Sequence record: NC_101837.1 | DNA: 64,000 bases | Origin: a phage | Strand: one strand, 5' to 3' | Part shown: positions 19,719-24,039 of the stretch, one piece after another | Position numbering within the stretch: the first letter of the stretch is position 1 | Layout of the letters: every line of letters begins with the position of its first letter | Translations under genes and position numbers: made by a program | The notes under the pieces: generated by a model | Database searches by the model: none | The model's input: only the letters and a program-made list of their open reading frames with translations | Told to the model about the DNA's origin: nothing

Positions 19719-19997
19719 ATGAGCTGCGAAAAATCTTTTTTCATCATCATTTACGGTAAGGATAACTGCCCACATTGTGTCAGAGCAAAAGAATTTGCAA
19801 TCAGCAAAGGTCTGCCTTTTGTATATAAGACACTTGGCGAGGGCTACACAAAAGAAGAGCTTATTGAGAAGTGTAGTCCAATCGTCCCCAGAACGTTGCC
19901 GCAGATCTTCTTAGAAAGCGATCTTGACAGTGTCCATATAGGCGGTGCAGACGATTTCATCTCTTTTGTTAAGAATGGTTTTGGAGAGAAAAAGTGA
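19719..19997 (+). CDS. glutaredoxin / NrdH-like redoxin
   Basis: CPHC active site near N-terminus, 92 aa, between nrdB and nrdD. Confidence 0.7.
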   Translation: MSCEKSFFIIIYGKDNCPHCVRAKEFAISKGLPFVYKTLGEGYTKEELIEKCSPIVPRTLPQIFLESDLDSVHIGGADDFISFVKNGFGEKK

Positions 19998-20854
19998 AAG
20001 TTGTAAAACGGGACGGTAGAGAAGAGTTTTATAACGGAATTAAGGTGATCAAGGCGGCAGAGTCCGCCTTACTTGAGTCTGGACATACTGAAGAAGAAGC
20101 TTACCGGATAGCTTGTGCAGTTAATGAAGTTGTTGCTAACAATCTACCAACCGACCAGTGCACGATCTCTGTAAAAAATATCCATATCCTTGTTGAAGAT
20201 GCTCTTATGGATATGGGTTTAAAATGTGCAGCCAGAGAATACATCCAGTATAGACAGACAAGAGATAATAACAGAGAGGCAGGTGGAAAACTGCTTGCAG
20301 ATATTAGTGGCTTCTTGGATCGAACTTGTGATGAATTTACAAAAGAAAACGCAAATAAGCCTACTAATCATGTACACACTCATCGCGACCTGCTTGCAGG
20401 CATCCTTAGCAAACACCTTGCATCAACACAGATCCTGCCAGACCGTGTTTCAGAAGAGCACAATAAAGGCTTCATCCATGTGCATGATCTTGACTACTTG
20501 ATCAGTCCGTTAACAAACTGTTGTTTGGTAAATTATCCAGATATGTTGGAAAACGGATTCAACATTGGCAACGCCCATGTCAGTAAGCCGAAGTCAATAG
20601 GGGTTGCAACAACAATCCTTAGTCAAATCTCTAGCGCGGTAGCTAGTGCTCAATATGGTGGTCAGACTATGAGCCATATTGATCATTATCTGGCACAGTA
20701 TGCTGAAGCAACCTATGAGAAGAACCTTAAATTTTGCCAGGAACATTGGTTGCCGGATGCTGAAACTGTTGCAATGCAAATGACAGATAAAGACGTGTTT
20801 GACAGCATGCAGACGTTGCTTTATCAGATCAACACACTAACCTCGGTAAACGGT
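19994..20854 (+). CDS. nrdD: anaerobic ribonucleotide reductase NrdD, exon 1
   Basis: N-terminal ATP cone (VVKRDGREEFYNGIKV); frame ends at TAA 20855-20857 inside putative intron. Confidence 0.75.
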
Positions 20855-21105
20855 TAACAAACTGGCCGTTTTAAAACTCTGCTAACCTCAGTATGAGGGG
20901 TCAGCTGATCGCTGGCTAACGGGGAACGCTAAGGCGAAAGCTATGCCAATCCCGTGACTAGCTTCACAAGGAGTGAGGCGGTTGTAACGACTAACCTTTT
21001 GGTGTAGGGATTATGGAAGATTCCGAAACGCAGGGGTCTGATTAAGAATCACACGGTGTGATTTCAGGCAAGAGATAGTCTGGCCTTGTGGAAACATAAG
21101 GGTGG
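20855..21105 (+). ncRNA. putative ORF-less group I intron interrupting nrdD
   Basis: About 250 nt between nrdD frames; GTGACTAGC (P7 5' strand-like) and AAGAGATAGTCTGG (P7 3' strand-like); boundaries inferred from U before 5' splice site and G before exon 2, +/- a few nt. Confidence 0.55.
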
Positions 21106-22374
21106 GGACCGCAAACCCCTTTTATCACATTAAGTTTAGGTTTGGACACTTCGGTCTTTGGTAGAATGATTACCAAAAATTACTTGAAAGTCCACAAAAT
21201 GGGTCTTGGTGAAGAACGTATCACACCTGTGTTCCCTAAAGTGCTGTTCTTCCTGGAAGAGGGTGTCAACATGAACCCTGGGGATCCTAACTATGATTTG
21301 AAACGATTAGCTCTGGAATGCTGTGCAGAACGTATCTATCCTGACTTCGTATCTGTACCACTAAATAGAAAAGTGACAGGCTCGACAGATGGCAAAGTAA
21401 CTAGCATGGGTTGCAGGAGTTTTCTTAGCAAATACAATGACTTGGAAACAGGCGAGGAGAAATACCTTGGCAGATTTAACTTAGGCGTTGTTAGCCTTAA
21501 CCTGCCAATGATTGCGGCAAAAGCTAAGACGGAAGGTGTTGATTTCTTTGCAGTTCTTGACGAATACTTGGATCTTGCATATGAGGCTCACCTTGTAAGG
21601 GTTAACCGTCTAAAAGGAACAAAGGCAGGGCAGAACCCCATCATGTGGTGTGAAGGCGCTCTTGCTCGCCTGGATCCTGAAGAGAGTATTGATAAACTCT
21701 TCTATGACGGGTACGCTTCCATCAGTATTGGGTATATTGGTGTGTATGAAACCTGTCAGATTTTGGGCAGAGAGGGTGACAAGGCTTTAGCTCTTGGAAT
21801 CCTTCAGCACATGAGAGATGCTTGTGAGCGATACAAGAAGGAAAGTAGACTAGCATTTAGCTTGTACGGCACTCCTTCTGAGAGTCTATGCTATAAAGCT
21901 GCAACCTGTCTGGATCGTGAATATCCGGAAGTGTTGAAGCACGAGCATGAATATCTCACCAACAGTTTCCATCAGCCAGTGTGGATAAATAGCTCTCCTT
22001 TTGATAAGTGGGAGTATGAGGAAGGTTTTGCTATGATCTCCTCTGGTGGCAACATTGGATACGTAGAGACACCTAACCTGAAAAACAACCTGGATGCTTT
22101 AGAGGCTCTTGTTGACTTCGGGTATAAACATATTATGTATTTTGGTATTAACCAACCTGTGGATAAATGTCTCAAGTGTGGTTTCTCTGGTGAGTTCAGT
22201 GCAACAGCTAAAGGGTTCTGCTGCCCTGCGTGCGGATGCCACGATGAACAATATATCTCAGTGATCCGAAGAGTGTCTGGATATCTTTCCAGTCCTAACT
22301 CCCGTCCTTACAATAAAGGTAAGCAAGCGGAAGTTATCGAGCGAGTTAAGCACTACGGAAGTTGTGGTTGCTGA
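21106..22374 (+). CDS. nrdD: anaerobic ribonucleotide reductase NrdD, exon 2
   Basis: Exon-2 frame opens at 21100 (GWGPQTPF...) upstream of track start 21142; C-terminal glycyl-radical motif RVSGYL. Confidence 0.7.
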   Translation, partial: GPQTPFITLSLGLDTSVFGRMITKNYLKVHKMGLGEERITPVFPKVLFFLEEGVNMNPGDPNYDLKRLALECCAERIYPDFVSVPLNRKVTGSTDGKVTSMGCRSFLSKYNDLETGEEKYLGRFNLGVVSLNLPMIAAKAKTEGVDFFAVLDEYLDLAYEAHLVRVNRLKGTKAGQNPIMWCEGALARLDPEESIDKLFYDGYASISIGYIGVYETCQILGREGDKALALGILQHMRDACERYKKESRLAFSLYGTPSESLCYKAATCLDREYPEVLKHEHEYLTNSFHQPVWINSSPFDKWEYEEGFAMISSGGNIGYVETPNLKNNLDALEALVDFGYKHIMYFGINQPVDKCLKCGFSGEFSATAKGFCCPACGCHDEQYISVIRRVSGYLSSPNSRPYNKGKQAEVIERVKHYGSCGC

Positions 22375-22411
22375 TACTTGACAAAAGCCACAAGGATGTG
22401 GCACTATACAG

Positions 22412-23404
22412 ATGTTTAGGGAAGTTAGGAAACAAGAAATGGCTAAATTATCAACAGAAGAGTTTATAGAGAAGGCGAAAATCATTCACGGTTATAAATA
22501 CGATTACACGAAAACAGTGTACGTGGATTGCTATGCGAAGGTTTGCATTACCTGCCAAATCCATGGGGATTTTATGCAAGCACCTTGTAAACACTTGCAA
22601 GGTCGTGGTTGTCCTTTTTGTGCAAAACTTTCTCGTGCTGCAAAGTGTAATAAAGGTCTTAAATTTGTAGAAAGGGCCAAAGAAATCCATGGAGATAAAT
22701 ATGACTACTCTCTCGTATACTACAAGACTTGCAAAGACAGGGTAGAAATAATCTGCAACACTTGTGGAAATCACTTTACACAGACACCTGATAACCATAT
22801 AAATTTGAAAAGAGGTTGTCCAGTTTGCAAGGGGTCAAGAATCTCACAAAGTAAAACATCACCACACGAAAAGTGGGTTGAGTCCATAAGAAGTAGAAAT
22901 CCTTATGTTGAGATATTGGAAGAAATTATTGGGTGGGATAAGAAAGTCCTGTGCTGCTGTAAAGGTTGTAGCCACACATGGTTAACCGTACCAAGCAGTC
23001 TTAAGCAGGGACATGCTTGCCCTAGATGCGCTAAAACAGGATTTTTATCACACGATAACGGAAAACTCTACATTATGGTTGATGATCCAGAAGTACCTAC
23101 ATTTATGAAAATAGGGGTCAGTCATAATGAAAGTAAGCGAAGAGACCAGATACTTAAAAGTGCACAAAGATCTAGAGCTGGTATCCGCGATCTTCACATA
23201 GTGAAAACGTTGGAAGGATCAACTGAAAACATGCTGGCTGTAGAAAAATCTATGCACAAAGCCTTCAGTAAATATAAAATAAACTTCCCTGTAAAATTTG
23301 ATGGTAGTACCGAATTCTTTAACTACAGACCTGAAGTGTTCAGTATGGTAGAATCAGCGCACAGAGAGATTTGTTGTAAACATAGGACAGGTAATAACCT
23401 GTAG
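22412..23404 (+). CDS. homing-endonuclease-like protein: three zinc fingers plus T5orf172 (GIY-YIG-like) domain
   Basis: Three CxxC...H...C..C repeats, then KLYIMVDDPEVPTFMKIGVS ... GSTEFF typical of T5orf172. Confidence 0.6.
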   Translation: MFREVRKQEMAKLSTEEFIEKAKIIHGYKYDYTKTVYVDCYAKVCITCQIHGDFMQAPCKHLQGRGCPFCAKLSRAAKCNKGLKFVERAKEIHGDKYDYSLVYYKTCKDRVEIICNTCGNHFTQTPDNHINLKRGCPVCKGSRISQSKTSPHEKWVESIRSRNPYVEILEEIIGWDKKVLCCCKGCSHTWLTVPSSLKQGHACPRCAKTGFLSHDNGKLYIMVDDPEVPTFMKIGVSHNESKRRDQILKSAQRSRAGIRDLHIVKTLEGSTENMLAVEKSMHKAFSKYKINFPVKFDGSTEFFNYRPEVFSMVESAHREICCKHRTGNNL

Positions 23405-23452
23405 AGCCATATATCAACCTTTAAACATGTTATAAACTAAAGGAGGTGCAGC

Positions 23453-23569
23453 ATGTCATCAGGCATTTATAAAATTTGCAAGTGTGGTTGTCGTTGCAAT
23501 CTTCGTTGGTGCAAGGCACTGGACGATTTTATTTGGCATTGCCCTGAATGTGATACGGAGTATCTATGA
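23453..23569 (+). CDS. small Cys-rich zinc-ribbon protein (38 aa)
   Basis: AAGGAGG RBS then MSSGIYKICKCGCRCN...CPECDTEYL; ATGA overlap with nrdG start. Confidence 0.45.
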   Translation: MSSGIYKICKCGCRCNLRWCKALDDFIWHCPECDTEYL

Positions 23570-24039
23570 ACATTGTCGGATACACAGAAGTATCTTACAC
23601 AGAAGGGCCAGGTATTAGAACTGCCTTGTGGGTATCTGGGTGCCCACACGCTTGCCCTGGTTGCTTTAATCAGGCATTTTGGTCAAAAGATAAGGGGAGG
23701 GAGTTCACTGAAGAAGATTTGCAAAAAATCTTGTCAGATCTGGATAACCCGTCTGTGTGCGGTATCTCTCTGCTGGGTGGAGAACCCTTAGCATACTATA
23801 ATGAGCCAGGTATTATTAGCCTGATGGAGAAAATTAAGGAAAAATTTGGTGACAAGAAAACTATTCTTGTATATACTGGGTTCACATTTGACCATATCTC
23901 TAGTGATGTTCTTAAACTGGCTGATATCATCATTGACGGTAAGTATGTAAAAGATTTACCAACCAAGAAACCGTTCCGAGGCAGTGATAACCAAAGAATG
24001 TTTAAAAAAGTATCAGGCGGTTGGGTTCAGGTAGACTAG
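23566..24039 (+). CDS. nrdG: anaerobic RNR activating protein (radical SAM)
   Basis: CPHACPGCFN cysteine cluster and GISLLGGEPL motif. Confidence 0.8.
   Translation: MNIVGYTEVSYTEGPGIRTALWVSGCPHACPGCFNQAFWSKDKGREFTEEDLQKILSDLDNPSVCGISLLGGEPLAYYNEPGIISLMEKIKEKFGDKKTILVYTGFTFDHISSDVLKLADIIIDGKYVKDLPTKKPFRGSDNQRMFKKVSGGWVQVD

Follow-up and report, generated by a model that had tools for sequence, protein, structure and literature searches.

How does a phage make a whole NrdD from a gene that is broken in two, and what has the endonuclease-like gene beside it to do with the break? The question is raised by the nrdD locus of a phage (sequence record NC_101837.1), of which a stretch of 64,000 nucleotides (nt), called the window here, was analysed. 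In the window, a gene for a class III, anaerobic ribonucleotide reductase (RNR) stops, resumes in another reading frame, and is separated from the gene of its activating enzyme, nrdG, by a gene that encodes a T5orf172-domain protein. The locus is very probably a Vequintavirus nrdD interrupted by a group I intron of subgroup IA2 that lacks an open reading frame (ORF), followed by an independent, free-standing T5orf172 homing-endonuclease gene; the evidence that carries this reading consists of the anatomy of the intron, an exact empty allele, covariation, and purifying selection on both exons. Region 19994-23569 is matched at 90-98% identity by about 120 phage records, nearly all of them from Vequintavirus (rV5-like myophages of E. 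coli), with WalterGehring, HeinrichReichert and Shigella phage CM1 as the closest relatives; by this similarity the source phage is assigned to the same genus of rV5-like E. coli myophages.

The first NrdD frame runs from GTG 19994 to TAA 20855-20857, and the second is open from 21100 (GGG TGG GGA CCG CAA ACC CCT TTT, or GWGPQTPF), directly after TAA 21097-21099. The reading frames and the division of the Pfam NRDD profile between the two pieces bear out the original prediction of a stop and a restart in another frame, and the gap, which had been put at about 250 nt, is exactly 257 nt by comparison with the uninterrupted 2124-nt nrdD of phage phiWec189, in which window position 20853/4 joins directly to 21111/2. 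The nrdD of phage inoa is intron-less in like manner, and the exactness of the insertion relative to the empty allele was counted as above chance. Group I introns follow a 5' exon that ends in U and themselves end in G, and by this rule a one-base ambiguity of the boundary was settled as 20855-21111: T20854, the last base of exon 1, is the 5' splice-site U, and G21111, directly before the CAA of exon 2, is the terminal (omega) G. In the conserved NG/QTPF motif, the insertion separates the Gly codon from the Gln codon. The G+C content is 49% in the intron versus 42% in exon 1. The gene is divided as follows.

19994..20854, plus strand: nrdD exon 1, 287 codons, with the ATP-cone and positions 1-154 of the NRDD profile; ends in GGT
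20855..21111, plus strand: ORF-less group I (IA2) intron, 257 nt, an exact insertion relative to the phiWec189 and inoa alleles
21112..22374, plus strand: nrdD exon 2, 420 codons and the stop, with positions 156-562 of the NRDD profile, RVSGYL and a C-terminal zinc ribbon

Joined at 20854/21112, the exons form a coding sequence (CDS) of 2124 nt and 707 amino acids (aa), of the same length as the intron-less phiWec189 gene, with all the hallmarks of class III NrdD (Pfam ATP-cone, NRDD and Gly_radical domains; RVSGYL; CxxC...CxxC). The predicted spliced protein aligns to T4 NrdD (PDB 1H78) with an E-value of 2e-167 and free of gaps across the junction (...TSVNG/QTPFIT...). The spliced CDS differs from the intron-less phiWec189 allele by 84 synonymous and 15 non-synonymous codons, and from that of HeinrichReichert by 35 synonymous and 2 non-synonymous codons. 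These ratios indicate purifying selection on both exons, which would require that the 257-nt insert be removed. The GTG start at 19994 overlaps the glutaredoxin stop codon, and the Pfam ATP-cone match covers residues 1-91; records of the BASEL phages place the nrdD start 213 nt later and so leave out the first 71 codons, with most of the ATP-cone.

The insert was examined for the secondary structure of a group I ribozyme, and each helix was verified base by base for complementarity. Helices from P1 to P9 were found, and they agree with the empty allele and with covariation in favour of the small ORF-less group I intron that had been predicted to split nrdD. P4, P5, P5a, P6 and the J8/7 segment were placed by Rfam alignment as well as by the base-by-base check; the names P3.1 and P3.2 are given here.

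20848-20854 (exon AAACGGT) with 20865-20871 (internal guide GCCGTTT), plus strand: P1, 7 base pairs, with a U20854·G20865 wobble at the splice site
20877-20882 (CTCTGC) with 21030-21035 (GCAGGG), plus strand: P3, pairing verified, with family covariation
20886-20898, plus strand: P3.1 hairpin, between P3 and J3/4
20899-20917, plus strand: P3.2 hairpin, between P3 and J3/4
20919-20924 with 20950-20955, plus strand: P4, the start of a P4-P5-P6 domain that spans 20919..20983
20928-20929 with 20945-20946, plus strand: P5
20933-20935 with 20940-20942, plus strand: P5a, with a GAAA loop
20956-20959 with 20980-20983, plus strand: P6
20961-20967 with 20973-20979, plus strand: P6a, with compensatory changes relative to the WalterGehring form
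20987-20993, plus strand: end of J6/7 and P7 5' strand (ACGACTA), invariant in all 27 relatives
20989-20993 (GACTA) with 21076-21080 (TAGTC), plus strand: P7, forming the P3/P7 pseudoknot
20994-21003, plus strand: P7.1 (ACC/GGT), 87% of cells paired across the family, with covariation
21004-21006, plus strand: GTA (GUA) linker that joins P7.1 and P7.2
21007-21024, plus strand: P7.2 (GGGATT/GATTCC), 83% of cells paired, with covariation and a compensatory change relative to WalterGehring
21038-21041 with 21064-21067, plus strand: P8 (CTGA/TCAG), verified
21047-21053 with 21057-21063, plus strand: P8a (AATCACA/TGTGATT), verified
21070-21083, plus strand: J8/7 and P7 3' strand (AAGAGATAGTCTGG)
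21084-21090 with 21095-21101, plus strand: P9 hairpin (CCTTGTG GAAA CATAAGG), compensatory CCCTGTG/CACAGGG in the WalterGehring form

Two complementary elements had originally been proposed as the strands of P7. One of them, AAGAGATAGTCTGG, does contain J8/7 and the P7 3' strand, and AAGAGAUAGUC, its J8/7-P7 segment, agrees with the consensus AAGAUAUAGUC of the Rfam alignment. The other, GTGACTAGC (20954-20962), is actually the end of the P4 3' strand together with the P6 5' strand; the true P7 5' strand is ACGACTA at 20987-20993, which fits the Rfam consensus, the T4 intron and all the relatives aligned. Since both elements contain GACTA, the complementarity that had been seen is real, though misassigned.

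Assignment to subgroup IA2 follows from the presence of P7.1 and P7.2 linked by G-U-A between P7 and the P3 3' strand, which is the criterion of that subgroup (PMC3428280). P3.1 and P3.2 separate the P3 5' strand from the UAA of J3/4 and from P4; since "P3.1" is a known optional pairing of group I introns (PMC3873408), the two hairpins are taken as a known kind of peripheral element and not as a novelty. Compensatory changes occur also in P3, which is CUCUCC/GGAGAG in WalterGehring and CUCUGC/GCAGAG in an IMG/VR relative (locus L007) versus CUCUGC/GCAGGG here, and in P3.2, relative to the ORF-containing intron of WalterGehring. On the exon side of P1, position -1 is T (Gly codon GGT) in 7 of the 7 intron-bearing alleles examined and G (GGG) in both of the 2 empty alleles, and the alleles with ORF-less and ORF-containing forms of the intron differ at position -7 in a covarying manner, A or C in the exon being accompanied by T or G in the guide.

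A family of relatives was collected by scanning IMG/VR with the P4 motif (TAACGGGGAA...CAATCCCGTG), which returned more than 120 loci, and 26 ORF-less relatives were aligned with the window by MAFFT without structural input. Across these 27 sequences, 71.7% of the whole structure is paired versus 59.4% in shuffles, and the covariation score is 0.33 versus 0.14, with none of 500 shuffles scoring as high and all slid controls far lower; P4 and P7 are invariant. The minimum free energy of the stretch has a z-score of -3.8, and it folds better than 200 of 200 shuffles. The upstream P3 5' strand (20877-20882), which about 25 relatives (IMG/VR loci L007-L126) also have upstream of the two hairpins, is 68.3% paired versus 49.5% in shuffles and has a score of 0.51 versus 0.22, again with 0 of 500 as high. 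Rfam assigns the 3' arm of P3.2, with mismatches, as the P3 5' strand, a placement that was rejected (41.4% paired versus 43.1% in shuffles, with 378 of 500 as high). No other introns of the nrdD-intron type were found elsewhere in the window.

These features bear on whether the insert might simply stay in place, with NrdD made as two polypeptides that assemble. Such an arrangement has a precedent among phage RNR genes in the NrdA of Aeromonas phage Aeh1, which is split by mobE into two assembling polypeptides (as cited in PMC7344957), and several GenBank records give the nrdD exons as separate genes with two CDSs, although the BASEL records of near-identical phages annotate nrdD as a two-piece join. 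For the nrdD of the window it is extremely improbable: the insert has the fold of a complete group I ribozyme, backed by covariation, and it interrupts the conserved NGQTPF motif. Past the stop, no in-frame start occurs before TTG 21142, where no Shine-Dalgarno sequence is apparent and from which the conserved QTPFITLSLG would be lost. The U at position -1 and the guide that covaries with the exon would have no role in an unspliced insert.

Among sister phages, the site of the intron exists in three coexisting states: empty, with an ORF-less intron, and with an intron that carries an I-HmuI-like HNH gene. The intron is present in 41 of about 120 Vequintavirus records, and the rest are empty at the site. 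The ORF-less 257-nt form accounts for 13 records at an identity of at least 99% (100% in CM1); the copies at the same site in CM1 and in the BASEL phages HeinrichReichert, AlexBoehm and RudolfGeigy are 99.6-100% identical. The ORF-containing form (28 records) is 797 nt long and 87% identical to the ORF-less form over the first 141 nt; its P8 loop carries a 177-aa HNH_3 / I-HmuI-NUMOD-like gene, of which the ATG and the stop lie in the two strands of P8. Origin of the ORF-less form by recent deletion of the ORF is unsupported, as beyond the 87% identity over 141 nt the two forms are unalignable from P7.1 to P8. A second site for a group I intron lies about 300 nt further into nrdD, at approximately 21412-21420; it is empty in the window, but occupied by an intron with an HNH gene in JEP1 (L004 3468-4217) and by one with an Rfam score of 70.5 bits in an IMG/VR Vequintavirus (L007, 2246-2485). 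No paper describing the Vequintavirus nrdD intron was found: the rV5 paper reports terL introns only, and in phage CB7, a Certrevirus of the Vequintavirinae, it is HNH-containing introns of RNR genes that splice by reverse transcription PCR (PMC7344957). Among the records that match the region are 19 GenBank entries (MG0656xx) named 'Campylobacter phage' with C. jejuni as host, 91-93% identical to it; their host assignment looks doubtful.

The gene between nrdD and nrdG was characterized by comparison with Pfam and PHROG and with the corresponding slot of sister phages.

22404..23440, plus strand: insertion/deletion block that contains the endonuclease gene; absent in HeinrichReichert, with about 22 nt in its place
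22412..23404, plus strand: putative free-standing homing-endonuclease gene (330 aa; probable start ATG 22439), recognized by Pfam, PHROG and motifs
23566..24039, plus strand: nrdG, activating enzyme (Fer4_12 / radical SAM), the downstream boundary of the endonuclease slot

As had been predicted, the product has three zinc fingers and a T5orf172 domain. The fingers (CxxC...CxxC) are located at aa 45-70, 115-139 and 183-206, and both T5orf172 (27.3 bits, cut-off 20) and DUF4379 (29.8 bits, cut-off 24.5) pass the Pfam cut-offs. GIY-YIG-like motifs are present toward the C-terminus (LYIM at aa 219, KIGVS at 233, KRR at 242-244, STEFF at 299), and the ORF matches endonuclease families of PHROG. The true start is probably ATG 22439, which is preferred because an AGGA Shine-Dalgarno sequence lies 8 nt upstream and homologues begin there. 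Homing-endonuclease genes that combine T5orf172 with CapR/DUF723/DUF4379 repeats are a described class (Barth et al., PMC10055350). In a scan around the gene, promoter-like matches were at chance level, and terminator-like matches numbered 6 versus 3.4 ± 1.8 by chance, none of which clearly marks the gene.

The original prediction had called the free-standing position unusual, which it is not: a homing-endonuclease gene, mobC, occupies the nrdD-nrdG gap of T4, RNR genes are found in 33% of the surveyed neighbourhoods of T5orf172 homing endonucleases (PMC10055350), and at least six different alleles occupy the slot in sister phages. Those of CM1, inoa, phiWec189, JEP1 and SophiaRose have the same nuclease domain with another number or order of zinc-finger repeats. 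The CM1 allele (L130 3113-3922) is truncated at 269 aa, before STEFF, and looks like a decaying copy. The block of the window is 98.7% identical in WalterGehring and 91% identical in Mangalyan; exact-protein look-ups yielded no further carriers of this allele, and the relatives found in IMG/VR are only 30-50% identical. A gene that close relatives have or lack at one precise position, and of which a truncated copy exists, shows the pattern by which a homing gene is recognized. The same facts weigh on the suggestion that the gene has been domesticated, as a zinc-finger/T5orf172 protein that would act as an anti-phage or anti-satellite nuclease or as a repressor, in the manner of Odn of ICP1 or the satellite-encoded CapR. 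Domestication is documented for this pair of domains (PMC10055350), and the gene is intact and has catalytic-type motifs; against it are the signatures of homing, namely presence or absence at a single intergenic slot, shuffled DNA-binding repeats and the truncated CM1 copy, and also the position of the gene next to a conserved operon of essential type. Domestication is accordingly considered very improbable, and a homing endonuclease remains the preferred identification.

The relation between the intron and the endonuclease gene was examined through their co-occurrence. A relative of the endonuclease was detectable in the slot of 24 Vequintavirus records, of which 9 carry the intron (38%) and 15 lack it; of approximately 96 records without a detectable endonuclease, 32 have it (33%) and 64 do not. 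These counts are approximate, as at least one divergent allele (that of SophiaRose) escapes the nucleotide search. The ORF-less intron occurs with no endonuclease detectable by blastn in 6 records, including HeinrichReichert and AlexBoehm and leaving out SophiaRose, of which the slot endonuclease was missed by blastn. The intron-less state of inoa and phiWec189 was checked directly. Thus, at the level of the family, the intron and the endonuclease are independent.

Co-occurrence served also to test collaborative homing, a process described for F-CphI and the psbA intron of cyanophage S-PM2 (PMC3984707). In this scenario the T5orf172 enzyme would cut intron-less nrdD at the insertion site (about 20854), and the ORF-less intron would protect its carrier and be carried along with exon 2 and the endonuclease gene. 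The layout is as published, with an ORF-less intron and an endonuclease gene by the same host gene (PMC3984707; PMC10055350); exon 2 is flanked by the intron on one side and the endonuclease gene on the other, and similarity to sister phages shifts around both elements. All three genomes that carry the window's endonuclease allele (the window itself, WalterGehring and Mangalyan) have an intron at the site, which is weak support, as these genomes are related and too few. Against the scenario, the family lacks any association (the intron is missing in 15 of 24 records with the endonuclease versus 64 of about 96 without), the 6 records just mentioned have the ORF-less intron alone, the insertion site is 1.5 kb away from the endonuclease gene, and the ORF-containing sister intron has an HNH enzyme of its own. 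Collaborative homing is therefore judged improbable, with a small chance that the window's allele recognizes the empty NG/QTPF site and that intron, exon 2 and endonuclease move as a 2.6-kb unit; if so, it would be a T5orf172 case of collaborative homing over 1.5 kb.

The combination of the ORF-less intron with this endonuclease allele was found in none of the 120 phage records; WalterGehring has the same endonuclease allele, but with the ORF-containing intron. The window looks like a HeinrichReichert/CM1-type nrdD joined to a WalterGehring-type endonuclease block. Similarity to sister phages is a mosaic that changes around the intron and the endonuclease gene: between about 20800 and 22200, through the intron and most of exon 2, CM1 (L130) has the same sequence as the window, and it differs on both sides, and WalterGehring (L001) is near-identical at 21200-22100 and across the endonuclease gene, and 26% different at 22200-22300. 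At the nrdD 3' end, in the region of the zinc ribbon and directly past the glycyl-radical motif, substitutions are dense in two patches, 22215-22275 and 22281-22320. WalterGehring, Mangalyan and phiWec189 have GFCCPACGCHDEQY recoded to GFVCPECGNHEEGT in the first; in CM1, inoa and JEP1, nearly all changes in the second are synonymous. The polymorphism of these patches might concern target sites of the neighbouring endonucleases or immunity to them; it shows no simple tracking of the endonuclease allele.

According to the preferred reading, the nrdD transcript would fold into the P1-P9 ribozyme, an external guanosine would attack after U20854, held in P1 by the U·G wobble, and the freed exon would attack after G21111, joining GGT to CAA, so that the spliced mRNA would encode the 707-aa NrdD. 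The intron contains no endonuclease gene and so could not home alone. The downstream gene would be a selfish element independent of it, a free-standing T5orf172 endonuclease with three zinc-finger DNA-binding repeats that most likely cleaves genomes lacking the gene close to where the gene itself is inserted, at the 3' end of nrdD or in the nrdD-nrdG spacer; cleavage during co-infection would be followed by copying of the gene during repair, as suggested by analogy with the seg and mob genes of T4 and the T5orf172 genes of ICP1.

Several points weigh against this reading. Both splicing and endonuclease activity are inferred. The search with a group I covariance model that had been proposed gave a mixed result: RF00028 matched an 801-nt local stretch over its full length (model 1-253, window 20845-21101) with an E-value of 2e-5, under an E-value threshold only, at a score of 29.3 bits, which is below the gathering score of 50 bits, and a search of the whole window at the Rfam gathering threshold gave no match. 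No convincing pairing of the start of exon 2 with the guide loop (P10) was found. The 3' end of nrdD is of the HeinrichReichert type and not of the type found with the same endonuclease allele in WalterGehring, so that no immunity polymorphism is tied to the allele of the window. The low Rfam score is probably due to the extra hairpins P3.1 and P3.2, and of 15 introns of the family (14 IMG/VR loci) a single one reaches 50 bits; since the P3 placement of Rfam lacks covariation support, the shortfall most likely lies in the model and not in the RNA.

The order of genes in this part of the genome is nrdA, nrdB, glutaredoxin gene, nrdD, endonuclease-like gene, small ORF, nrdG and phoH. The small ORF, at 23453-23569, is a conserved, Cys-rich sequence of 38 codons (MSSGIYKICKCGCRCNLRWCKALDDFIWHCPECDTEYL) with a strong AAGGAGG Shine-Dalgarno sequence, and its stop codon overlaps the start codon of nrdG in ATGA. 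Sister-phage records list it as a 'hypothetical protein', and it falls below the length limit of the program-made ORF list with which the window was presented.

The intron and the endonuclease gene are ordinary selfish elements for phage RNR loci, both already described in the literature on T4 and in public database entries for sister phages, and current understanding is left unchanged by them. Their value is mainly for annotation: many GenBank records of Vequintavirus phages give nrdD as two or three genes, which the exact splice junction allows to be joined. The family of introns with P3.1 and P3.2 is largely invisible to standard Rfam annotation, and a negative Rfam result at the curated threshold should be read with caution, being no evidence against a group I intron in a phage. 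With the homing cycle represented in all three states at a single site and an adjoining slot in which alleles are swapped, the locus is a convenient natural system for the turnover of selfish elements around RNR genes.

Among known systems, F-CphI with the psbA intron of S-PM2 and the DNA polymerase introns of T3/T7-like phages differ from this locus in that their enzymes have been shown to cut at the intron insertion site; here, co-occurrence argues against a link between intron and endonuclease at the family level. The IA2 intron of T4 nrdD (sunY) has the same host gene, the same conserved region and the same subgroup, and a very similar core (AACGACUA, GAAAC followed by the P3 3' strand, and J8/7 A(U/G)AUAGUCUG). 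Unlike the intron of the window, it is inserted 32 nt (10-11 codons) further upstream, inside a Tyr codon, is 1 kb long, encodes a GIY-YIG enzyme (I-TevII), and keeps the order AAAA-P3-UAA(AA)-P4 without the two hairpins between P3 and P4. The mobC gene is likewise free-standing in the gap between nrdD and nrdG, although it encodes an HNH protein and not a T5orf172 protein. The T5orf172 genes of the ICP1 type (PMC10055350) belong to another phage lineage and host gene, but have the same domain architecture, shuffling of repeats and presence/absence polymorphism, and the same preference for RNR, terminase and capsid loci; in Vibrio phage ICP1, as here, such a gene adjoins an intron-containing gene, in that case terL (PMC10055350).

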